From Trichodelitschia bisporula (Eukaryota): a stretch of DNA of 64,000 nucleotides. Numbering within the stretch: the stretch's first letter is position 1; every line of letters starts with the position of its first letter. The notes beneath the pieces are model-generated. The model made no database searches, had not been told where the DNA came from, and worked only from the letters and a program-made list of their open reading frames with translations. Positions 3,632-54,820 of this stretch are shown here, piece after piece. The stretch spans positions 62,001 through 126,000 of the forward strand of contig ML996706.1 in NCBI GenBank assembly GCA_010356995.1. Reading direction: 5' to 3'. The translations under genes were made by a program, and so were the position numbers.

Positions 3632-6179
3632 ATGAGCTCCACTTCAGATACCCGGGAGGGGCAGCTCATACCTGAGATTCAACCCCACCCACCCGCCGAC
3701 AGTCCTCTGACGAAGCCGATCACCTTTGGACTGTACAAGGCGCACCGCAGAAATGCTTCGCCTCAGACAAATGCTTCAAACCCGTTCACCGATCCGGAGC
3801 CGCCGAACCCGGTGTATCTCCACCGGCCGCCTCCTCTGAGGTTTTATGGGCCGGCGGCTTCATCCCTCAGCGTTGCTACAATTGATTCGGATGTGCTATC
3901 ACCGCCGCAGAGTCCGTGGGCTGTCTCCCGAGCTCCCAGTCAGGAGATGCTGCGACCCGAGAGGTTTCCGTCAGGTATGTGTTCGCGTCAGGTAGCGGTG
4001 GCTTGCCTGACCTTGATAGATCTCCCCGAGAGGCCAAAGAGCGAGAAGAAGCCCTTCTTCACGCGCGCCAAAGAACGCGTGTACAAACATGTCGAGCCGG
4101 CGGCAGTACTGCATCTCATCGACTTCCGTCCTTGGTTCTGGCCCTTCACGATCAAGAAGTACTCAGTCTTGTTCCTGATTGCGTGCGCTATTGCTGGCAT
4201 CATCGTCTCCAACATGTACTTCCACTGGATCGACAAGTCGATGAAGATTACGCGGACTTATATGTTGCCCGTTCTCATCATCTCCGTGTGTGCCGAGCCG
4301 CTTATCATGATCATCATCTTGCTCGTCGCCAAAATGCCCGATATCCCGAAGGAGGAAGTCGACATGATCATGAACCAGAACAAACAAGACGAAGACATTG
4401 AGGCCAGGGCATCGGAGAAAAAGCGCGAGCCGCAAGGCCCCTTTGAAACCGCGCTGGTTATCCCGTGCCACGATACCGACGAGACGGCCATGCGGACGAC
4501 TCTCGAATCGGCCTTTCCGCATTTCCGGCCCCAGGATATCTTCCTCGTTGATAACGGGCGGACGCGGCATCCCAGACACCCAACGTGCAATTTCCGCGCC
4601 TTCATCCGCAGCATCCATCCCGATATTGTTTATATCTGGTCGCCCATTGGGAGCAAGAATGCGGCGCAGCTGGTCGGTACACTGGCCGCGCGGGACTACA
4701 AGTATATCATGACGGTTGACGATGATGTCTGTATTCCGATGAACTTCCGCGCGCCGACGGAGATGATTGATGAGCGGTTCAAGGCCGTCGCGTATCCGCT
4801 CAAGGCCATGGATGCCGATTGCAATGTTCCGTTGTGGATGGTGGCATGGCAGGATGTTGAGTATCGCCTCGCGGGTATCTCGAAGATGGCGGAGGATCGG
4901 CTGTGTGGTGTTCAGTTTCCTCATGGTGCTGGGTGGTATGTACTCCGACAACGACAGTAAACGCAATACTGACAATAGCAGGTTTGTGGAGCGCGATACC
5001 TTTCTAACTCTTATGGAGTACTACCACCCAATGGACTTCATCGCCGAAGATTGTAACGCCGGCCTCGGCATAAACCGCATGGGCAAAGGCATTCGCTGCG
5101 ACGGACGCTCCTACCTCGCCACAGAGGTGCCCACAACCCTCTTCGGCCCCGGGCTGAACTGGTGGAAGCAGCGCCAGAAGTCGTGGGAAATGGGCCGTCA
5201 CGGCCAGCTCTTCGCCTACATCCGGCAATTCCTCTGGTCCATGCCACCACGGCGCACAGTCCAAGGCATCCTCTGGCACAAGCTAACCTACTTCTACCTC
5301 ATCTGCTGCATCGCAATCGACTGGCTGCGCATCCCCACCATCATCGCCCTCGGCCGCACAGCGACCTGGTGGCGCAACGCTGTCCTCCTCATGCTCTTCT
5401 CCGCCATTCCCCCGCTCTACTACTCCTACGTCAGTTGCCGCCGTCGCCCCGACATGAAGCCGCGCTTTTGGGCCTGCTTCACGTACCCCTGGTACAAGCA
5501 ACTCTACACCGTGGTCTCCATCTTCGGCGCCATCCGCGCGGTCGGCTACTTTTTCGGCGGCCACCCCCGCCCCCCCACCATCCAACAAATGCTCAAGAAC
5601 AAAGACGACCGTTGCTTCTGGCTCGACCCACGCTTCGCAACCAACCCCGCCTATCTCGCCGACGAAGGTGAAGCCATCGAGGCTGCCAAAGCCGGGGAGT
5701 CGACGGAAGCGTTGAACGAGAAATCACAAGCCGCCCCGCCGCCCGACCTCGTGAACCCCTTCCTCGATCCTCCTCGCGCGGCGTACCACGCGCGGCGCCC
5801 CTCGGCAAGCGAGATCGAGATTGACGTCACGCCTGAAGTATCTACGCCTGAGCGCCCGGAGTTCCATTTCATGTCAAGTCCGTTCGCGGACTCGAGTGTC
5901 ACGCTTGCTGGGCCTGGCACCGTGACGCCCGGCAGCCGCAGTCGCCCGAGCAGTGGGCGCGGCCCCGGGGCGTTGGGCCGCGAGTGGACGGGTGGGAGTG
6001 AGTTGACGCTTGTGGAGGCGGCGGGGCCTGAACGGTGTCGGACGCCGGTTGTGAAGGCGCCGGTGGGGCCGTTTGTGTTGCGGACTGTGGATGAGGGGGT
6101 GCCTGCGTTGCCGAAGGGGGGGTATTTTGCGTATACGCCTCCTGGGGCAGTGGAGGCGCCGTTGAGGGTTGTTAATTGA
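3632..6179 (+). CDS. Membrane-bound glycosyltransferase family 2 (processive type)
   Basis: Motifs VIPCH, VDN, DDD, AED and QRQKSW (QxxRW-like), with TM helices before and after. Introns 3975-4019 (in frame) and 4936-4981 join the two ORFs. Confidence 0.85.
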
Positions 6180-7202: not shown

Positions 7203-8330
7203 TCACCATTCCGTCCGTAGTACCCAGGTCGGCGTTCTTCCGCAGAAGGAGACTCCAGGTTGTTTCCCTGAGGACACCCGCGCGCCGAACTCGCACCGCG
7301 TTCTAAAGATAGCTCCCGAGTCGAAGGGGCCTGGCGGTGCGGCATTGACTCTATCGGGGCGGCGGCGGCGGCGTTGAGACTCAAGCTCGCTGCCGCTGGT
7401 GCTGTCGTCGGAGTCCAAATCGTCCTTCCACACCGGACGGCGTCTAGGAACCGCGCGGCGGGGCGGCATCGGATCGCGCGGCGCGCGGGTCTCGACGTTG
7501 TAGTGCCGCGGAAGGATGGGATTTGGCAACAGGGTTGGGCCGTAACGGCGGCGAGGCGTGCGGCCGTCACGGCCGTAAGGGGAGAAAGCCGGGCTGCGTG
7601 CCGGAGATTCCCACCCAGTGGGCGCTTCCCAGGCCGGTGGTGCGCGACAGGGCGGCATCGGCTCGCGCGGCGCCCGCGTTTCCACGTCATAGCGGCGGCG
7701 GCGGGCTGGCTCCGGCCAGAATGGGGAGAGAGGGGCGGGAGTGCGGCCATAATCCCGTGGCGGCAGTGGCATCTCTCCAAGCGGCACCCGCGTCTCCACG
7801 TTGTAATAACGAGGACGGCGGGGGGGAGGGGACGGACTGCGGCGCCGGCGTGGAGGAGGCGAGGGGCTCCTGCCGCGATATCCCGTGCGAGGGCGGCGAC
7901 CGTACTCCTCTGCACCTGCCGGGGTGCGTGCATACTCCCAAGGGGGCGGCATCTCTCCTGCCGGCACCCGCGTCTCTACATAGTAGTAGGGGCGGCGGGG
8001 CGCGGGGGCAGGGGATGGACTCCGGCCGCGGTAGCCCGTTGCAGGGCGGCGACCGAACTCAGGTGTACCGTAGTACAAATCGGCGGGGACCTCACCGCAG
8101 GGCATCGGCGGCGGAGCGGGCGGACGGCCGTACTGCTCATCGAAGGCCCTGCGGCGGGCTTCGTGGCCGATGATGGTTTCCTCGGTGGGGTCGGACCGAG
8201 GGAGTTTGCGAGCGGGCTCGCGGGTGCGGGGGGAGGGAGGAAACCTGCGACGGTCAGCCTCGTGAGCGGCGGGGCGCTGAAGGTATGTTGGTGGGGGGCG
8301 CGCTGCGCGCTTGCGTGGGTATTCTTCCAT
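7203..8330 (-). CDS. Hypothetical Pro/Arg-rich internal-repeat protein; 3' end uncertain (probable frameshift or unrecognised intron)
   Basis: 375-aa ORF with four copies of Y-x-VETR(V/A)P..MPP and two of RRPxTGYRGRSPSP. TATAA at ~8391 upstream. Confidence 0.55.
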   Translation of the reverse strand: MEEYPRKRAARPPPTYLQRPAAHEADRRRFPPSPRTREPARKLPRSDPTEETIIGHEARRRAFDEQYGRPPAPPPMPCGEVPADLYYGTPEFGRRPATGYRGRSPSPAPAPRRPYYYVETRVPAGEMPPPWEYARTPAGAEEYGRRPRTGYRGRSPSPPPRRRRSPSPPPRRPRYYNVETRVPLGEMPLPPRDYGRTPAPLSPFWPEPARRRRYDVETRAPREPMPPCRAPPAWEAPTGWESPARSPAFSPYGRDGRTPRRRYGPTLLPNPILPRHYNVETRAPRDPMPPRRAVPRRRPVWKDDLDSDDSTSGSELESQRRRRRPDRVNAAPPGPFDSGAIFRTRCEFGARVSSGKQPGVSFCGRTPTWVLRTEW

Positions 8331-9650
8331 GTTTTCTAATGGAGGAGTAGGCGTGAAGTGGAGAGTGAGATTACGGGGCGGCGTTTCGACTTATAAGGCC
8401 CAAGGAATGTCGACAAAGTGAGCGAAGGATGCTCAGCGTGATGTAGGAAAGCGGAGTATTGTGATGTCACTCAATGAAAGAATCGCGAATAGTGTCATGA
8501 ACTGCGCCAGAAGTGGACAAAGAAACTAAGAACAGGAACACAGAATAACAAAGTGAGATCACAATACGGTCTCCTAGCTCCTCCGCAAAGCGTGGTACAG
8601 ACCGGCTCTCTGATTTTCTTTCTTTCATTCATGAACTTTCAGCTGCTCTCTCCACCCCATCTTCACACACAGTATACTCAACGGTAATTAGTCTCAGAGT
8701 CGACTACAGGGCTTGGGGAAAAGACTGGCATATGAGTCGATCTGGTTCTAGTATTTTCATCTAAGTGGATTCACATTACCATAATAAGGTCTGAAAGCCT
8801 GCCCGAGGCAAATGCCCCAAAATAGGCTCTTCTGGTCCGCTGAAACTGGCTCGTTATCAGTTAGGTTTTTACAACCTGCGCACGAGGCTGAGGGAAGGCT
8901 GAGTTTCAGGTAAACTTACGGTAGGAAGTTGAGGAATGCCAGGTAACGAGCATGAGCTGTAACGCATTACACAAATCAGAGCAGTAAGCGGCTCGTCCGT
9001 TCATGAGCGTTCGTGACCTATCGATAAAAGCGATGAACCAACATAAGATGACAGGATGGCAGAGCTGGCAGAACTGGCCGCGCTGGGGCGTCACTCACCC
9101 AAGCGTTATCGATAAGTACCCCTGTATCGATAAATACCCGATGGGCCGAAGAAGGGCCGAAGAAAATCCGAGAAAATCCCGAGATCTATGGTCCGAGCTC
9201 AACAAGCTGCCAAAGCCCAATTGGCTTCCAGAGTGAACTTCCACCCTCCATTCAGAGCACAGCACACACCCTTGTCTTCCGCAACCACCTTTGTTGTCCA
9301 CCATCACCACCATGCCGAATTTTGAGGTCCTCTTTCGAAACGTGAGCTTTATGGCCATCACGCATCAATATGAACTCACCGAGATAAACATCGAAATACA
9401 ATCTACACGATACGCCTGGATTCCTTCCTGAATACATCGATGCATAGTGCCAGAGCGCGCGGCCCTGTCGCTTTCTCCCAGAAGTGTCCGTCAACCATCG
9501 GAAACTCCGGCGTATAATGCATCAGACGGAACCTTAAAGCCTAAACCAGAAGGTATGTATGAGAATGCAACACAACAAGCTGATTCTGATATAAACTAGA
9601 AGCCCGACTATGAAAGCCAGGTGTGCCGCTTGCTCCAGTCCCATATGCTC

Positions 9651-9704
9651 TCAGAATTGCAATGGTTCTTCATGAAGGTCCAGTACCACGAAGGTAATCA
9701 TCAT
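9651..9704 (-). ncRNA. Box C/D RNA-like unit 1
   Basis: ATGATGA-ttaccttcgtggta-CTGG-accttc-ATGAAGA-accattgcaatt-CTGA; flanking stem 9628-9650/9707-9727. Confidence 0.7.
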
Positions 9705-10056
9705 ATGAGCATAGGACTTGGACGAGCAGTCCCAACCGAAATACGAAAGCTGACTCGAAGGCCGAGTACGAAAGAAGAATACGAAAAGCAAACTCTGAAG
9801 ATCGAGTACAGAAGAAGCATACGAGACGCCGACCCGAAGGCCGAATACGAAGGAAGAATGCCAAACGCCAACTCCGAAGATCGAGTACAGAAGAAGCATA
9901 CAAGACACCGACCCGAAGGCCGAGTACGAAAGAAGAATACGAAACGCTGGTCCGAAGGTTGAGTACGAAAGAAGAATACGAAAAGCTGACCCAAAAGTCG
10001 AGTACCGAAGAAGCATACGAAAGCCAGTTGTGCTGCTTGTTCAAGTCCCTATGCTC

Positions 10057-10119
10057 TCAGAATTGTAATGGTTCTTCATGCAAAAGTCTGTAACCATAAA
10101 CCGACAAACTGATCATCAT
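10057..10119 (-). ncRNA. Box C/D RNA-like unit 2 (D' guide antisense to 18S rRNA UAACCAUAAAC)
   Basis: ATGATGA-tcagtttgtcggtttatggtta-CAGA-cttttgc-ATGAAGA-accattacaatt-CTGA; ~23-bp flanking stem 10033-10056/10122-10144. Confidence 0.75.
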
Positions 10120-10254
10120 ATGAGTATGGGACTTGGACGAGCAGTCCTCAACTGAAGTTTGAAAGCGGACCCAACGGACGACTACGAAGAGCTGGCTTCG
10201 AAGACTGAGCCTGAAGAGGTCTTGAAGCCCGAGTACGAAAGAATGGTACGAAAG

Positions 10255-10405
10255 ATGACCCGACGGTCGCGTACGAAAGAATGATACGAGAGATGACCCG
10301 ACGACCGCGTACAAAAGAATGAGACGAGAGATGACCCGACGGCCGTGTGCGAAAGAATGAGAGGAGGGATGACCCGACGGTCGTGTACGAAAGAATGATA
10401 CGAAA
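10255..10405. repeat. ~38-bp tandem repeat (about 4 copies)
   Basis: GATGACCCGACGGTCGCGTACGAAAGAATGATACGAGA and variants. Confidence 0.85.
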
Positions 10406-10457
10406 GCTGACCCGAAGGCCAAGTACGAGATGAGCCTTATCAAACCCTTGTATCTTC

Positions 10458-10509
10458 TCAGAAAGTTTTCTTCATCAGCTTGATCAGAATCACGAAGGTA
10501 TTTCATCAT
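10458..10509 (-). ncRNA. Box C/D RNA-like unit 3
   Basis: ATGATGA-aataccttcgtgatt-CTGA-tcaag-CTGATGA-agaaaacttt-CTGA; all four boxes near consensus; stem gtatcctc/gaagatac. Confidence 0.8.
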
Positions 10510-10974
10510 TGAGGATACCGGCCATGGCCTTGAGGGACGAAGACTTAGCTGTGCCGGAGATATCAACCTATACCGATGTAAGCGTGTTCGAGACGACTAC
10601 GAAAAAGCTGACCTAAGACAAAGCAGAGGCCAGACCAGGAATATCGAGAACGAGAAGAGAGATGACCCGGAGGTCTACGAAAGAGACGATCTGATATAAC
10701 CCAGAGGCCAGGCCAAGAAGACCGAGTACGAGAAGAGAGTTGACCCGAAGGTCTACGAGAAAGCTGGCCGGATACAAACCCGGATCAGCAAAGAGTGACC
10801 TGAAGGTCTACGAGAAAGCTGGCTTGAGACAAATCCAAGGCAAAGCCAAGAAGATCGAGTACGAAAAGAGTGTTGGCGCGAAGGCGTACGAAAAAGCCGG
10901 CCTGATACAAACCAGAGATCAGACCAAGAAAGTTGTCTACGAAAAGAGAGCTGACCCAAAGAGCCCGTATCTTC

Positions 10975-11028
10975 TCAGAGAATATTCTTCGTCATCGCGA
11001 TCAGAGACGTGCATATGTCTGTCATCAT
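10975..11028 (-). ncRNA. Box C/D RNA-like unit 4
   Basis: ATGATGA-cagacatatgcacgtct-CTGA-tcgcg-ATGACGA-agaatattct-CTGA; stem cctgtatctcc/gaagatacggg. Confidence 0.75.
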
Positions 11029-11386
11029 TGGAGATACAGGCGATAGCCTTGAGGGACATTGACTCAGCATCTCGGAGACATGAACATATACCGATGTAAG
11101 CGCGCTCGAGACTGAGCTGACCCGAAGGTGTACGAAAAAGCTGACCTGAGATAACTCAGATGCCGGACCAAGAAGAGTGACGACCCGAAGGTCTACGAGA
11201 AAGCTGGCCTGCAACGAACCAGAGACCACACCCAGAGGAGAGTTGACTCGAAGGTCTACGAGAAAGCTGACCTGGGAAAACAGGCCAGACCAAGAAGATT
11301 GAGTATGAAAGTTGCCCGAAGGCCGAGTACGATAGTTGACCCGAAAGTCAAGTACGAGATGAACCTTGTCAAGCCGTTGTATCTTC

Positions 11387-11440
11387 TCAGTCAATATCAT
11401 TCGTCAGCTTCATCAGAGACGTGCAAATGTCTGTCATCAT
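11387..11440 (-). ncRNA. Box C/D RNA-like unit 5 (D' guide antisense to LSU rRNA GACGUGCAAAU)
   Basis: ATGATGA-cagacatttgcacgtct-CTGA-tgaag-CTGACGA-atgatattga-CTGA; perfect stem tgtatcttc/gaagataca. Confidence 0.8.
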
Positions 11441-11861
11441 TGAAGATACAGGCGATGACCTTGAGGGACATTGACTCAGCGTATCGGAGACATAAACCTA
11501 TACCGATGTAAGCGTGTTCGAACAGAGCTGATCCGAAGGTCTACGAGAAAGCGGCCTGAGACGAACCAACGGCCAGACCAAGAAGAGTGATGACACGAAA
11601 GCGTACGAGAAAGCCGTACTGAGCAAACCGGAAGCCGGACCAAGAGGAGTTGACCCGGAGGTCTACGAAAAGGCTGACCTGAGACGAAGCAAAGGCCAGA
11701 GAGTTGACCTGAGACGAAGCAAAGGCCAGAGAGTTGACCTGAAGATTTACGAAATGACTGGCCAGAGAAGGATCAGAGGCCAGACTAAGAAGATTGAGTA
11801 CGAGATGACCACCAAGGTCGAGATACGACACAGCTGAGCCATGTCAACCCTTTGTATCTTC

Positions 11862-11905
11862 CCAGAAAAGCTTCGTCAACTTGTTCAGAGCTTATGTTCC
11901 ATCAT
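11862..11905 (-). ncRNA. Box C/D RNA-like unit 6 (degenerate C and D)
   Basis: ATGATGG-aacataagct-CTGA-acaag-TTGACGA-agctttt-CTGG; stem ttgtatcttc/gaagatacaa. Confidence 0.5.
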
Positions 11906-12286
11906 TTGAAGATACAAGGCATGACCTTAAGGGATGAAGATTCACCTGTCTCGGAGACATAAACCTATACCGATGTAAGTGTATTCGCGACGAACGACCC
12001 GAAAAGCTTCCCAAGACAGTTACGAGAGAGGCTGCCCAAGGCAGCTAAAAAGTACGAGACAACTTGTCTTTGGCACGTCCAAAGAAGGATACGAGAGATG
12101 TCGGCCTTTGAGGGCGCAACGGGCGTACGAAAGATGTCGACCTCCAAGGGCGACGGCGTACGAAAGACCTCCCTGACCTCTGGGGTGCGGAGAGAGTACG
12201 AGATGATCACCAAAATCCACTTACCTGACAGGACCACAAAGGTCGAGATGCGAGACCGGTGAGCCATCTCACACCCCCGTATCTTC

Positions 12287-12329
12287 TCAGGAGGGCTTCG
12301 TCAACTTGTTCAAAAGCTGTTTTCATCAT
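12287..12329 (-). ncRNA. Box C/D RNA-like unit 7
   Basis: ATGATGA-aaacagctt-TTGA-acaag-TTGACGA-agccctc-CTGA; stem tatcttc/gaagata. Confidence 0.6.
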
Positions 12330-12650
12330 CGAAGATATAGGCTCTCCCGGAGATACATGAACCTATGCTAATGTACACAGTATTCGAGACAAACGACCCG
12401 GCGGACTCAAAACAATTACGAAAGAAGTTGCCCCAGGCAACTAAAAAGTACGAGACAACTTGCCTTTAGCAAGTCCAAAAAAAAATACGAGAGATGCCGA
12501 CTTCAGAGGGCGCGACGTGGATACGAAATATCCTCTTGACCTCTTAGGACGCGGAGAAGAGTACGAGATGTCTTCCAAATCCACTTACCTGACAGGACCA
12601 CGAAGGTCGAGATGCGAGAGAGGTAAGCCATCTCAAACCCCCGTATCTTC

Positions 12651-12695
12651 TCAGAAGAGCTTCGTCATCTTGTTAAGAAGCTTTTGTTTCGTCAT
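12651..12695 (-). ncRNA. Box C/D RNA-like unit 8
   Basis: ATGACGA-aacaaaagctt-CTTA-acaag-ATGACGA-agctctt-CTGA; stem cctgtatcttc/gaagatacggg. Confidence 0.55.
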
Positions 12696-13000
12696 CGAAG
12701 ATACAGGCCACACTCACCCGTCTCGGAGTGACATAAAACCTATACCGATGTAAAGAGTGTGCGAGATGGACGACCCAAAAATTCCACAAGGGTTACGAGA
12801 AAGGTTGCCAATGGCAATTCCATTGGATAACTGAATAGATACGAGACAACTTGCCAACGACAAGTCCAAAAAAGCGTACGAAAGATTTCGACCTCTGAGG
12901 GCGCGGAGGAGTACGAGATGACTACTAAAATCCACCTACCTGATGGGACCACGAGACTAAGATACGAGACAGGTGAGCCATATCAACCCTGTGTACCTTC

Positions 13001-13042
13001 TCAGAAATGCTTCCTCAACTTGTTAGGAGCTTGCTCCATCAT
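13001..13042 (-). ncRNA. Box C/D RNA-like unit 9 (degenerate C and D')
   Basis: ATGATGG-agcaagct-(cCTA)-acaag-TTGAGGA-agcattt-CTGA; long flanking stem. Confidence 0.45.
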
Positions 13043-13129
13043 TTGAAGATACAGGGCATGCCTTCAGGGTTGAAGTCTCACCTGCCTCGAATTGTCAATG
13101 GCAAGCGAGAGAGCGTTAGTATACGGAAA

Positions 13130-13375
13130 AGCTTGCCAACGGCAAGTGAGAGAGCGCAACAATAAGAGAGAACTTGCCCACAGCAAGTGAGAGAACGCAA
13201 CCATACGAAAGAACTTGCCCATGGCAAGTGAGAACGCAACCATACGAGAGAACTTGCCCGTGGCAAGTGAGAACGCAACCATACGAGAGAACTTGCCTAT
13301 GGCAAGTGAGAGAACGCAACTATACGAGAGAACTTGCCAGTGGCAAGTGTAAGAGCGCAACCATACGAGAGAACT
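13130..13375. repeat. 33-35-bp tandem repeat (about 7 copies)
   Basis: GAACTTGCCnnTGGCAAGTGAGA(GA)ACGCAACCATACGAGA. Confidence 0.9.
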
Positions 13376-13486
13376 TTTTTATTGCAAGTGGGAAAGCGTT
13401 CCCAGGGCAAACGCTTTTAAAGTTTTACGTCAGATAGGTTTATGTTTCTTCAACACAGGTGAGTCAAGTCAACCCTTTGTATATCC

Positions 13487-13527
13487 TCAGAAATGCCCAT
13501 TAACTTGTTCAGAGCTTGTCTCATCAT
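13487..13527 (-). ncRNA. Box C/D RNA-like unit 10
   Basis: ATGATGA-gacaagct-CTGA-acaag-TTAATGG-gcattt-CTGA, inside a ~160-nt hairpin (13433-13592). Confidence 0.6.
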
Positions 13528-13924
13528 TTGAAGATACAGGGCATGCCTTCAGGGTTGAAGACTCACCTGCCTCGAAGAGACACAAACCTATCGATGTAAA
13601 CAGTGACCGTAGCGGCGGAGACGCGAAGTACGAAAGAATTTGTCCCTGACAGGTGTGGCCGTTGCGGCGGAGACACGAAGGTACGAAAAAACTTGCCTAT
13701 GGCAAGTGCGGCCATAGCGGCGTAGACATGATGGTCTCTAAGAGTTGTCTAATGGTCAACTATACGAAAGAACTTGCCAATAACAAGTGAGGGAGCGCAA
13801 ATTTAAGAAAAAATTTGCCCATGACAAGTGAGCGTTGCCTAGGGCGGGCAAAGGCTCTAAAGGCTTACATCAGATAGGTTTATGTCTCTTCCAGAGAGGT
13901 GAGTCAAGTCAAACCTTTATCTCC

Positions 13925-13964
13925 TCAGAAATACCCTTCAACTTGTTCAGGACTGACTCATCAT
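13925..13964 (-). ncRNA. Box C/D RNA-like unit 11
   Basis: ATGATGA-gtcagtc-CTGA-acaag-TTGAAGG-gtattt-CTGA; stem tatctcc/ggagata, a compensatory change relative to tatcttc/gaagata in other copies. Confidence 0.6.
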
Positions 13965-14284
13965 TTGGAGATATAGGGCTTGCCTTGAGGCTCCCCTGTC
14001 TTGAAGAGACACAAACCTATCGATAAACTGTACGAAAGAACTTGCCTATGACAAGTGAGAGAGCCGAACTTTAAGAAAAAACTTGTCCAGGACAAGTGTG
14101 GGCGTAGCGGCGGAGACACGAAGGTCTCTAAGAGTTGTCCAGTGGTCAACTGTACGAAAGAACTTGCCCATGACAAGTGAGATAGCGCAACATTAAGAAA
14201 AAACTTGCCTATGACAAGTGAGTGAGATCAGATAGGGTTATGTCTCTTCTAGATAGGTGAGTCAAGTCAAGCCTTTGTATCTCC

Positions 14285-14324
14285 TCAGAAATGCCCTTCA
14301 ACTTGTTCAGGACTGACTCATCAT
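14285..14324 (-). ncRNA. Box C/D RNA-like unit 12
   Basis: ATGATGA-gtcagtc-CTGA-acaag-TTGAAGG-gcattt-CTGA; near-duplicate of unit 11. Confidence 0.6.
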
Positions 14325-14539
14325 TTGAAGATACTGGGCTTGCCTTGAGGTTTACCTGCCTCGAAGAGACACAAACCAATTGATGAACTGTACGAAAGAA
14401 CTTGTCTATGACAAGTGTGGCCGTAGCGGCGGAGAGTACGAAAGAACTTGCCTATGGCAAGTGTACGAAAGAACTTGTCGATGACAAGTGTGGCCATAAC
14501 GGCGGAGACACGAAGGTCTCGAAGAGTTGTCCAATGGTC

Positions 14540-14706
14540 AACTGTACGATAGAACTTGCCTGTAGCAAGTGTACGAAAGAACTTGTCGATGACAAGTGTA
14601 CGAAAGAACTTGCCAATGACAAGTGTACGAAAGAACTTGCCAATGACAAGTGTACGAAAGAACTTGCCAATGACAAGTGTACGAAAGAACTTGCCAATGA
14701 CAAGTG
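14540..14706. repeat. 27-bp tandem repeat (about 6 copies)
   Basis: GAACTTGCCAATGACAAGTGTACGAAA; the last copies are identical. Confidence 0.95.
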
Positions 14707-14740
14707 AGAAAGCGTGGCCTGAGGCAGACGCTGATGTTTT

Positions 14741-14930
14741 ACTTACCTGGTATTTGGGTCGAAGCCATGACACTGTATGTCGAGGCAGTGTGCAGTCAAA
14801 AGTCGATGGGGGCGTTGGGTGGAGCAAAGAGTGGAAGAAAAGGTGCTGCAGTCAAAGACTGTGGAAGAAGATGTGGATGTGGATGTAAAGGAAAGGTTTC
14901 TGGAGAGCCCCTCGAGGGGTATTTAAGGAC
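14741..14930 (-). promoter_or_regulatory. Putative promoter and first exon of the array's host transcript
   Basis: Minus strand: TATA-like TTAAATA at ~14920-14926, then a CT-rich leader (catccacatccacatcttcttcc), then a consensus donor CAG|GTAAGT at 14746, immediately upstream of the array. Confidence 0.45.
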
Positions 14931-15243
14931 CTGGGGAGCGCTAGTTGATATCGTGGGCACCGCTGGTGGATTCACCACAGCAGGCAGGTACCAGGGGTGC
15001 CAGCATTATGGGAGTGTGGGGAGGGGGACGATGAGGTGAATCGCTAGTTGATTTGCCAGAACGGGCGGGTACGCTGGGGTGGCGGCACGATGTGGGTGTG
15101 CGGAGCGGACGATGAGGTGAATGATTGCTATCGGGTGGGTGCTGCTGCAGCGGGTGATGGGCGGCACACGCTTTTTCCGAGCAGGTGCAATTTGGTACCC
15201 CATTCACTGGCACCTGCCAAACCGGGTCGAGCCCATCGGCCCA

Positions 15244-15345
15244 TGCCGACTCGGTACCGGCTCCATGCCGGCTTGGCACCGGCCCGTGCCGACTCGGCAC
15301 CGTCACATGCCGACTCGGCACCAGCCACATACCGACTCAGTGCCG
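15244..15345. repeat. Five 21-22-bp spaced copies of palindrome TGCCGA-C-TCGGCA
   Basis: Copies start at 15244, 15266, 15287, 15308 and 15330. Confidence 0.8.
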
Positions 15346-16426
15346 GCCATATACCGGCCATAACAACCGGGTGCAAGCGGCAACTTAATGAGTGAGCGGG
15401 CCGATGCTTGAAGAGAGCACATCAAAGGAGATGGGGAAGCATTTCACTGGGTTTGTTCAGCAAACGTATACGAATCGTAATTAGCATCGGATGGCGAAGA
15501 ACACATTGTACATGGAATGGTGAAGAGGAAACCGAGCCTTGAGTTTGATAGCGAGCGAGCAAGTATGCGATTTGCAATGCAATTGTGCTTTACGAACTAT
15601 GAACCATAATGATCTACAAATATAATGCTGCAAGTCAAGCGGAGAAGCCAACCCTCCTTGGCTCCAACAGCATCTACTAGCGTGTCAAACCGTATGATGC
15701 ACGATGCTGAACCGGTTATCATACTGGGGAAGGAAATGCGGTATTTCTAGGGCTCCAGAACGAAATGCTTTGAGAAGAGTTTGCTCTATGATAAAAATCC
15801 ATGGGAAGAGGTGAGGTTGGAGCTCACGGACAACATGTTACCAGTTGAAAATATCAGTGCATGTGATTCAAGGACTCGATGCTCCATAACGAGGTCGTGG
15901 AAAATTTCTTGAGACTCTGAAGCTTATGATGGGAGAGAGTGGTACCCGTATATTGCCTAAAGGCGCTCTCCATGGATAACAATCCTAGTTCATGAGCAGC
16001 GGACGCTTCATTGTGTAGCAGGGTAATAATCTACAGCTTCATGGATGTTCCGAATGGGAAAATCCCACTCCGGTCCAGCCTCGTCCACCAGCACGTGATC
16101 GAGCCTTGCGCCCCAAGGCGGTGATGGACATGTGATGCTGAATTAACAGTGAAGGTCCAAAGGATGGCAAACGCGGTCTAGAGTTCAAGTAATGCAGTTC
16201 ACTCATCTATGACATTTCAAATATATTTCTCATCAACGCCTCTGTGATCCTCCTTTCGAGCTTTTGGTATATGCCGCCGGCCAAATTTTGGCAGCGATTT
16301 TGGTAGAATGCCACGATGGTGCTCAGGAGCATCACCAACTTTCATGGCGTTACGAGCCAGCACTCAACTAAAAGGTTGATGCACTATCACCAAGGCTTCT
16401 AGCATAGCGTCACATATGGCGCTTGA

Positions 16427-22183: not shown

Positions 22184-23190
22184 ATGCTCTCAGCAACTCG
22201 TACTCTTCTCCGCACGTTCCCCCGGCAGATCCGCACAATGACCAGCGCTGCCGCAGCCCGCCTCTCCGGCAAAACCATCCTCATAACCGGCGCCTCGTCC
22301 GGCATCGGACGCAGCACCGCGAAGGAATTTGCGCGTACGAGCCCAAAGGACTTGAAGCTCATCGTCACGGCGCGGCGGCTGGAGAGCTTGAAGAGCCTGT
22401 CTGAGGAGATTAAGACTGAAGTTGGAGAGGGCGTGCAGGTCCTCCCAGTGCAGCTGGATGTGAGCGACCCTCAGCAGGTGGCCGGGCTGGTAGGGAAGCT
22501 GCCGGAGGGGTGGGGCGAGGTAGATGTGCTCGTCAACAATGCGTGAGTCCTCCACTCCCTGTGCGTTTTGGCTAGGTGCTAATCGTGGCACAGTGGACTC
22601 GTAAAGGGCATGGCACAAGCCCCCGCCATAGAAGCAGCAGACATCGACATCATGTTCAAGACAAACGTCCACGGCCTAATCAACATGACGCAAGCCATCC
22701 TACCCATCTTCAAGAAGCGGCCCGACGGCGGAAGGGGCGACATCATCAACATCGGCAGCATCGCGGGCCGCGAAGGGTATGCGGGCGGGAGTATATACTG
22801 CGCGACGAAGGCGGCGGTGCGTACGTTCACGGAGGCGCTGCGCAAGGAGCTGATTTCGACCCGTATACGGGTTATGGAGATTGATCCCGGGCAGGTTGAG
22901 ACTGAGTTTTCGGTTGTTAGGTTTTATGGGGATAAGGCGAAGGCGGATGCGGTTTATGCGTAAGTGCTGAGTGAGGCGAGATGGTGGGGACTAATGGGAA
23001 TAGGGGCTGTGAGCCGTTGACGCCGGATGATATTGCGGAGGTGGTGGTCTTCACCGCCAGCCGGAGGGAGAATGTCGTTATCGCGGACACTTTGGTCTTC
23101 CCCAGCCATCAGGTATGTCTCCGCTCAGACCGAAGGCAAAGCTAACCATCATAGGCCGGGGCAGGTGTGCTGTACAAGAAGCCGGCGTAA
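22184..23190 (+). CDS. Short-chain dehydrogenase/reductase (YdfG / YMR226C-like 3-hydroxy acid dehydrogenase)
   Basis: TGASSGIG, NNAG and YCATK motifs; VETEFSVVRF; three introns (~22543-22593, ~22960-23003, ~23113-23153). Confidence 0.92.
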
Positions 23191-54732: not shown

Positions 54733-54820
54733 TCTCCTTTGGTGTAGTGGTTATCACTTTGGATTTTGATGTATATCTTCAAAAGTTCCAACAACCCCGG
54801 TTCGACTCCGGGAAGGAGAT
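54733..54820 (+). tRNA. tRNA-Gln(TTG) with ~16-nt intron
   Basis: Acceptor TCTCCTT/AAGGAGA, D arm GTGTAGTGGTTATCAC, anticodon arm TTGGA-TT-TTG-A[intron]T-TCCAA, T arm CCCGG-TTCGACT-CCGGG, T-run terminator. Confidence 0.9.

Follow-up and report, generated by a model that had tools for sequence, protein, structure and literature searches.

The question raised by this locus is whether a series of short, repeated units on one strand of a fungal chromosome represents a set of genes for small nucleolar RNAs (snoRNAs) of the box C/D class, or something that only resembles one. The units lie in a 64,000-nucleotide (nt) stretch of the Trichodelitschia bisporula genome (assembly GCA_010356995.1, contig ML996706.1, positions 62,001 to 126,000), here called the window, and all coordinates are counted from its first letter. 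The locus is a single-copy, head-to-tail array of compact units, about 5 kb long, in a Dothideomycete. With moderate confidence, its sequence can be read as a polycistronic array in which compact box C/D snoRNA-like genes, some of them without guides, are expressed from the minus strand.

Twelve units follow each other head to tail across 9640-14336 when the sequence is read on the minus strand. They had been proposed from the letters alone (the original prediction), and the box D ends found here (Table 1) coincide with those proposed. Each unit consists, in order, of one arm of a terminal stem, 1-2 nt, box C (RTGATGA), a spacer, a CTGA-like box D′, a short loop, a TGAYGA-like box C′, a second spacer, box D (CTGA) and the other arm of the stem. 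The proposed C/D′-C′/D layout holds, and so does the geometry of a kink-turn (K-turn). Box C starts 40-63 nt upstream of the box D end in all 12 cases, and successive units are spaced 347-519 nt apart (box C to box C). The loop between D′ and C′, put at 5-7 nt in the original prediction, measures 6 nt in units 1-10; units 11 and 12 are built differently. The pattern ATGATGN{26,56}CTGAG is matched 11 times in the 64 kb, at ten minus-strand sites within the array and at a further site, 4162-4203, compared with a chance expectation of 1.40 and with no shuffle among 100 reaching the same number. Units 5 and 7 are missed by this pattern because of their box variants.

The array appears to be alone of its kind in the window. 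A covariance model made from the 12 units, one of the checks suggested at the outset, recovers those units by construction and finds no thirteenth copy in the 64 kb; beyond these it gives only faint reverse-strand echoes of the 12 and three matches at E 6.8-8.7. Four sequencing runs cover the stretch, two of DNA, which may be its source, and two presumed to be of RNA (X3 and X4; one sample, one study), all assembled as contigs. The depth of the DNA contigs is 198-236 over the array and 215-235 in its flanks, which argues against a dispersed repeat and for a single copy. On this indirect evidence, flank-like depth and the lack of another copy in the window, a dispersed family of repeats such as miniature inverted-repeat transposable elements was rejected as far as the data allow it to be seen, and this envisaged refutation was not borne out. 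No relatives of the array were found by blastn among 89 metagenome stretches that match the box-plus-stem pattern, some of which are unrelated C/D snoRNAs of other organisms, and a protein-level search for mis-annotated relatives, using a 179-amino-acid (aa) minus-strand open reading frame (ORF) that runs across unit 10, gave no match. The neighboring Lon protease ORF has 100% identity to a protein recorded under the name Trichodelitschia bisporula, and its best match after that is only 77% identical, which indicates that close relatives are lacking among the sequences searched. Relatives matched by it include Tothia, Venturia and Rhizodiscina, also Dothideomycetes.

Evidence on the nature of the units comes from what has been kept in them and what has not. 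Box C reads ATGATGA in nine of the 12 units, ATGATGG in units 4 and 7, and ATGACGA in unit 5, and box D reads CTGA in every unit except unit 7, where it is CTGG. Apart from these one-letter variants in units 4, 5 and 7, the boxes agree with the C/D snoRNA consensus (box C RUGAUGA, box D CUGA; taken from PMC2780460). The terminal stem comprises 7-10 base pairs (bp), is separated by 1-2 nt from the R of box C and directly abuts CUGA, which is the arrangement of a K-turn, and each unit can be folded into a box C/D K-turn closed by such a stem. Cells of the terminal stem are paired in 90.7% of cases (n = 108) versus 31-73% when the 3′ partner is slid, a value not reached in any of 500 shuffles, and five of the nine stem pairs carry changes on both sides. 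The closing stem that had been proposed is upheld by these figures.

In an alignment of units 1-10 with their flanks, conservation peaks over the stem with box C, over the D′-loop-C′ segment, and over box D with the stem, and the two guides form the troughs. Five independent pairs of closest paralogs (units 1/2, 3/4, 5/6, 8/9 and 11/12) differ at 2 of 58 positions in boxes C and D versus 28 of 110 positions in the guides (Fisher p = 2e-4); their terminal stems differ at 13-16% of positions, and D′ is not especially conserved (7 of 20 positions differ). The claim of conserved boxes beside changing guides is confirmed, and the contrary outcome, in which the boxes would be no better conserved than neighboring positions, was not encountered. 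Judged from these comparisons, constraint is much stronger on boxes C and D than on the guides. Since the best-kept parts are boxes C and D with the adjoining stem, which are the parts of a K-turn, the conservation is meaningful only on the minus strand, and it is there that these parts look selected. The hairpin units are about 70-89% alike (that is, they differ by 11-30%), the closest about 85-89%, and no excess of transitions is present, so the copies are old and do not look like products of repeat-induced point mutation. The origin of the units by duplication, also part of the original prediction, holds.

The guides are less uniform. In units 1-7 the spacer from C to D′ measures 7-11 nt and that from C′ to D 6-7 nt, and the two are for the most part complementary; in units 8-10 they measure 15-17 nt and 10 nt, and units 11 and 12 have D guides of 12 nt; altogether, 12 of the 24 guide slots are at least 10 nt long. 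The D′ guide of unit 8 contains ATTTGCACGTC, a perfect 11-nt complement of the large-subunit (LSU) ribosomal RNA (rRNA) sequence GACGTGCAAAT that occupies positions 2-12 from D′, and unit 9 has a guide of the same type with one mismatch (ATATGCACGTC). The sequence GACGTGCAAAT is present in fungal LSU rDNA sequences printed in the available part of PMC12287172 and in a universal 28S primer (PMC7222323). It overlaps the LSU stretch that pairs with the D guide of Neurospora crassa CD5 (PMC2780460, supplement 1), a snoRNA assigned to 26S-Am856 with snR72 as its homologue (PMC2780460, Table 1). Under the rule that the target nucleotide pairs with the fifth nucleotide upstream of D or D′, unit 8 would be aimed at a G two nucleotides 3′ of the A targeted by CD5. 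In yeast, snR72 targets A876. Units 10 and 12 share the same 10-nt core of the D′ guide, TACCTTCGTG, placed in both at 3 nt from D′, and their terminal stems differ; halves of units have thus been shuffled or kept in register.

Table 1. Features of the array and its surroundings, in window coordinates; units are listed in the order in which the minus strand is read
Feature	Position	Strand	Box D end	Box to box (nt)	Remarks
Unit 1	14274..14336	minus	14285	40	Terminal stem; box C ATGATGA (14324), box D CTGA (14285); guides 7 + 6 nt
Unit 2	13914..13976	minus	13925	40	Near-copy of unit 1; compensatory change in the terminal stem (CTCC/GGAG)
Unit 3	13476..13539	minus	13487	41	On the longest extended hairpin (13412-13602, -80.2 kcal/mol)
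Unit 4	12990..13054	minus	13001	42	Box C variant ATGATGG; degenerate D′ (CCTA)
Unit 5	12640..12706	minus	12651	45	Box C variant ATGACGA; D′ CTTA; 10-bp terminal stem
Unit 6	12276..12340	minus	12287	43	Entirely within plus-strand intron 12259-12380
Unit 7	11851..11917	minus	11862	44	Variants in both boxes, ATGATGG (C) and CTGG (D), that weaken the K-turn; terminal stem of 10 bp
Unit 8	11376..11451	minus	11387	54	17-nt D′ guide containing ATTTGCACGTC; 10-nt D guide
Unit 9	10964..11039	minus	10975	54	Paralog of unit 8; one mismatch in that guide (ATATGCACGTC); 10-nt D guide
Unit 10	10447..10520	minus	10458	52	15-nt D′ guide, core TACCTTCGTG 3 nt from D′; 10-nt D guide
Unit 11	10046..10131	minus	10057	63	Second sub-family (terminal stem ATACTC/GAGCAT, C′ ATGAAGA); 12-nt D guide
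Unit 12	9640..9716	minus	9651	54	Sub-family of unit 11; D′ guide shares core TACCTTCGTG with unit 10, equally far from D′
Spacers	9716..14760	minus			Pyrimidine-rich short tandem repeats; small hairpins followed by TYTCGTAY
Spliced non-coding antisense transcript	9312..14777, both ends approximate	plus			Joints in RNA contigs
Possible start region of the minus-strand transcript	14741..14926	minus			Putative, from sequence motifs

The conservation of the K-turn parts, taken together with one guide-target match in the correct register, makes expressed C/D snoRNA-like RNAs the best reading of the array. The array would be transcribed as one precursor from a promoter near 14.8-14.9 kb, where a candidate start region contains TTAAATA at 14926-14920, a pyrimidine-rich leader, an ATG at 14768 and GTAAGT at 14746-14741; the Homol-D promoter box core AGTCAC is absent from this region. 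Each unit tops an imperfect extended inverted repeat of 20-45 bp, and hairpin segments of 190-213 nt have folding energies of -47 to -80 kcal/mol, with the minus strand folding more stably than the plus strand in ten of the 12 units. Such enclosing stems suggest release by an RNase III-type enzyme, which would cut every extended stem, and exonucleases would then trim the products to a core protected by Snu13, Nop56, Nop58 and fibrillarin. Units 8-12, with guides of 10-22 nt, may be methylation guides; for unit 8 the methylated residue would be the G of LSU rRNA two nucleotides 3′ of the target A of N. crassa CD5 (snR72 family). Units 1-7 would retain the protein-binding scaffold alone, either as guide-less C/D ribonucleoproteins (RNPs) or as copies on their way out.

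The opposite strand of the locus is transcribed and spliced. In the RNA contigs the strand can be read only from splice sites, and small RNAs are beyond their reach; stretches lacking coverage and gradients of depth are given no weight. Eleven joints are seen only in the two presumed-RNA runs; ten are GT..AG on the plus strand and one, at low depth, is AT..AC. The ten GT..AG joints correspond to nine introns of 46-122 nt, one of them with two 3′ ends: 9553-9599, 9694-9774 (alternative end 9777), 10578-10623, 11096-11159, 11303-11352, 12259-12380, 12973-13026, 13459-13512 and 14257-14330. Their 5′ splice sites are GTATGT, GTAATC, GTAAGC (twice), GTATGA, GTGAGC (twice) and GTGAGT (twice), with branch points that resemble CTRAY. 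Units 1 and 6 are intronic, units 3, 4 and 12 are cut through, and units 5 and 7-11 are exonic; where the plus-strand introns fall relative to the units follows no fixed rule. The spliced non-coding plus-strand RNA, which extends from about 9312 to 14777, is an antisense transcript in its own right and does not host the units. A same-strand host with the units in its introns, as in UHG-like genes, is not supported, given that the canonical joints are on the plus strand and that units are intronic, exonic or cut through. A coding function of the plus strand was likewise rejected, as the longest frame left without the introns spans 221 aa between stops and has no Met before residue 206; the many short ORFs are due to strand composition (AT skew up to 0.30).

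Two further observations concern this transcript. One X4 RNA contig (depth 2.6) skips 104 nt at 13434-13537, with AT..AC ends on the plus strand and ends that are non-canonical on the minus strand too; the skip begins exactly at the first base of the minus-strand terminal stem of unit 3 and may reflect either an artefact of template switching over the hairpin or some unusual product of processing. One contig of the antisense transcript begins at 9312, and the transcript may arise divergently from the promoter region of a minus-strand ORF at 7203-8390, a Pro/Arg-rich frame of 395 aa with repeated YNVETRAPR-like motifs and no Pfam match, opposite which the other strand is open too.

Several findings weigh against a minus-strand array of expressed guide RNAs. 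In the RNA contigs the plus strand accounts for all ten canonical (GT..AG) joints and the minus strand for none, and minus-strand RNA was not seen in these contigs, which cannot show small RNAs. The contigs join across introns 10578-10623, 11096-11159 and 11303-11352, and the depth leaves no other contig there. Two conserved elements have a second meaning on the plus strand: CTCACC in the 3′ flank is there a 5′ splice site (GGTGAG), and in units 1 and 2 the 7-nt "guide" GTCAGTC is there a branch point (GACTGAC). Transition mismatches in the extended stems that can be read as G.U number 54 on the minus strand versus 35 on the plus strand, an asymmetry that favors the minus strand and is suggestive only, being modest and drawn from paralogs that are not independent. 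No AGNN or NGNN tetraloop occurs on a stem of at least 8 bp on the minus strand of the array (shuffle mean 0.56). In N. crassa no C/D snoRNA is below 69 nt (PMC2780460), a length that none of the units attains.

The guides themselves add to these difficulties. The "guide library" of the original prediction is an overstatement with partial support: 12 of the 24 slots are at least 10 nt long, seven of the 12 units have spacers of 6-11 nt, below the 10-21 bp of C/D guides (PMC2780460), and a target was found for one guide only, the D′ guide of unit 8. Twelve other guide strings are absent from the partial LSU and internal transcribed spacer text, no N. crassa snoRNA in the supplements carries these guides, and guide strings other than that of unit 8 were met in literature text only as unrelated primers. 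A comparison with Rfam, which had been suggested as a check, yielded no family at gathering score for the array; the weak matches below threshold, a point in favor of C/D RNAs, are to C/D families only, the best being SNORD18 (29.2 bits versus 41) and SNORD31 (28.1 versus 40).

Many of these findings would also fit a relic, in which the units are dead or dying snoRNA copies, the sole working product is the spliced plus-strand RNA, the hairpins supply its splice sites, and gene conversion keeps the boxes. Only plus-strand RNA is documented, units 1-7 are without usable guides, box D of unit 7 is broken and box C of units 4 and 7 is variant, 5′ splice sites, branch points and 3′ splice sites of the plus strand are located in or beside units, and Rfam is silent at gathering score. 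However, introns and units are not regularly placed with respect to each other, so that splicing cannot explain why conservation is highest where the stem adjoins box C and where box D adjoins the stem; overall divergence among the copies is 11-30%, against 2 of 58 positions in boxes C and D; and the spliced RNA is itself without a long ORF or known function. A relic of this kind is considered rather unlikely, and expression of C/D snoRNA-like RNAs from the minus strand remains the preferred reading.

The spacers between the units invite a different explanation. They are composed of tandem repeats with periods of 27, 38/39, 41, 63 and 78 nt and others, and within 9716-14760 they bring the motif TCGTA to 72 occurrences on the minus strand and none on the plus strand, against an expectation of 3.6 derived from the rest of the window. 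The motif closes a small hairpin and a pyrimidine run (consensus TYTCGTAY) across repeat families of differing period; degenerate copies exist within the arrays, so it is not invariant. The units could accordingly be imagined as snoRNP caps or punctuation marks, with precursor RNAs protected at their ends by C/D RNPs and spacer bodies displaying UCGUA to an RNA-binding protein. Such RNAs would resemble the mammalian snoRNA-ended long non-coding RNAs (sno-lncRNAs) known from the SNORD116 region (PMC4234469, available in part), and the retention of K-turn parts by guide-less units would suit it. Minus-strand RNA was not seen in the RNA contigs, however, the extended stems would favor cutting each unit from its spacer, and the degenerate copies of TCGTA mean that constraint on the motif is not absolute. 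We know of no protein that binds TCGTA and recognize in TCGTA or TYTCGTAY no protein-binding or processing motif. Capping of this sort is judged improbable, and little credence is given to its fullest form, in which guide-less ultra-compact C/D RNPs would cap or punctuate a repeat RNA with about 70 UCGUA sites, as a fungal counterpart of a sno-lncRNA sponge tuned by the antisense RNA.

That the hairpins are Dicer substrates, a source of small interfering or microRNA-like RNAs from long hairpins or from sense-antisense duplexes with the C/D-like motifs incidental, is very improbable: the 20-45 bp inverted repeats with strongly negative folding energies, and a plus transcript that spans the whole array and could pair with a minus strand if that is also read, are compatible with it, but it leaves unexplained both the selective conservation of boxes C and D with the exactly adjoining stem and the in-register 11-nt rRNA match. 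Introner-like elements are known from Dothideomycetes, and they were considered here in view of the host and of the hairpin form of the plus-strand introns; they are not favored because the units are confined to one array.

If the units are compact C/D snoRNA-like genes, they may be compared with several known systems. Archaeal dual-guide C/D sRNAs have the same compact, symmetric order of C, guide, D′, short loop, C′, guide and D, with an internal element resembling a K-loop. Their spacers are about 12 nt on both sides, whereas the units described here combine 15-17 with 10 nt (units 8-10) or 7-11 with 6-7 nt (units 1-7) and are fungal. Yeast clusters of the snR72-78 type also have several C/D RNAs on the same strand, at intervals of a few hundred nt in a stretch free of ORFs, and offer double-stranded structures for their release by endonucleases, but the yeast members are unrelated and have conserved rRNA targets, whereas the present units are paralogs separated by tandem-repeat spacers. 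All yeast clusters are excised by Rnt1 at AGNN hairpins, according to the available part of PMC5934358. In the yeast arrangement the AGNN loop caps the hairpin, while here the hairpin encloses the snoRNA and has no stem with an AGNN or NGNN tetraloop. A case of a stem that encloses a snoRNA was reportedly described by Giorgi et al. in 2001, a reference given in PMC5934358.

Also comparable are the UHG-like clusters I-V of N. crassa, likewise a filamentous ascomycete, in which a spliced non-coding transcript with alternative splicing runs over a snoRNA cluster (PMC2780460, available in part). Those clusters hold one C/D snoRNA per intron of the same strand, unlike the present array, where all canonical introns are on the opposite strand. 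The C/D snoRNAs of N. crassa measure 69-212 nt and, in the parts of PMC2780460 available, are nearly all described as single-copy. In the mammalian SNORD115 and SNORD116 clusters, many copies of one C/D family stand in tandem within a non-coding transcription unit that is itself repetitive, the majority of them lacking a convincing target in rRNA (partly after PMC4234469, available in excerpt); their units differ in being of normal size, 1-2 kb apart and within same-strand introns, compared with a period of about 350-520 nt and 40-63 nt box to box here. The fungal clusters presented in the available parts of PMC5824354 and PMC2780460 are of unrelated, conserved snoRNAs, and no tandem array of paralogous C/D units was found described for a fungus in a limited literature search, which is no proof of absence.

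Other elements were noted in the window and in the metagenome material. At 23109-23151 on the minus strand is a solitary candidate C/D-like element of 43 nt (ATGATGG ... CTGA) with an 8-bp G+C-rich stem and an internal CTGA, which the covariance model of the array does not detect. An unrelated C/D snoRNA-like family of 69-72 nt is present in metagenome contigs L003, L023, L030, L038, L041, L047, L052 and L060; in four contigs there are two copies about 1.0-1.2 kb apart. The family has kept its boxes and one of its guides, and the second one varies. A short way upstream of the array (5′ on the minus strand), about five copies of 21/22-nt tandem repeats occupy 15237-15356. The only match in the window at Rfam gathering score is a tRNA gene at 54733-54820, which at 88 nt is probably intron-containing.

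A twelve-fold tandem array of paralogs would be unusual against the background of ascomycete snoRNA genes, which are described as almost all single-copy in the portion of PMC2780460 available. The array would also be unusual in the size of its units, which is below that of the listed N. crassa C/D snoRNAs, in having kept its boxes and lost guide capacity, and in facing a spliced antisense RNA. If silent, it would be a well-preserved fossil of snoRNA amplification. If expressed, it would offer a natural experiment on the birth, change of target and death of C/D RNAs, and would make a function of guide-less C/D RNPs in their own right accessible to testing.

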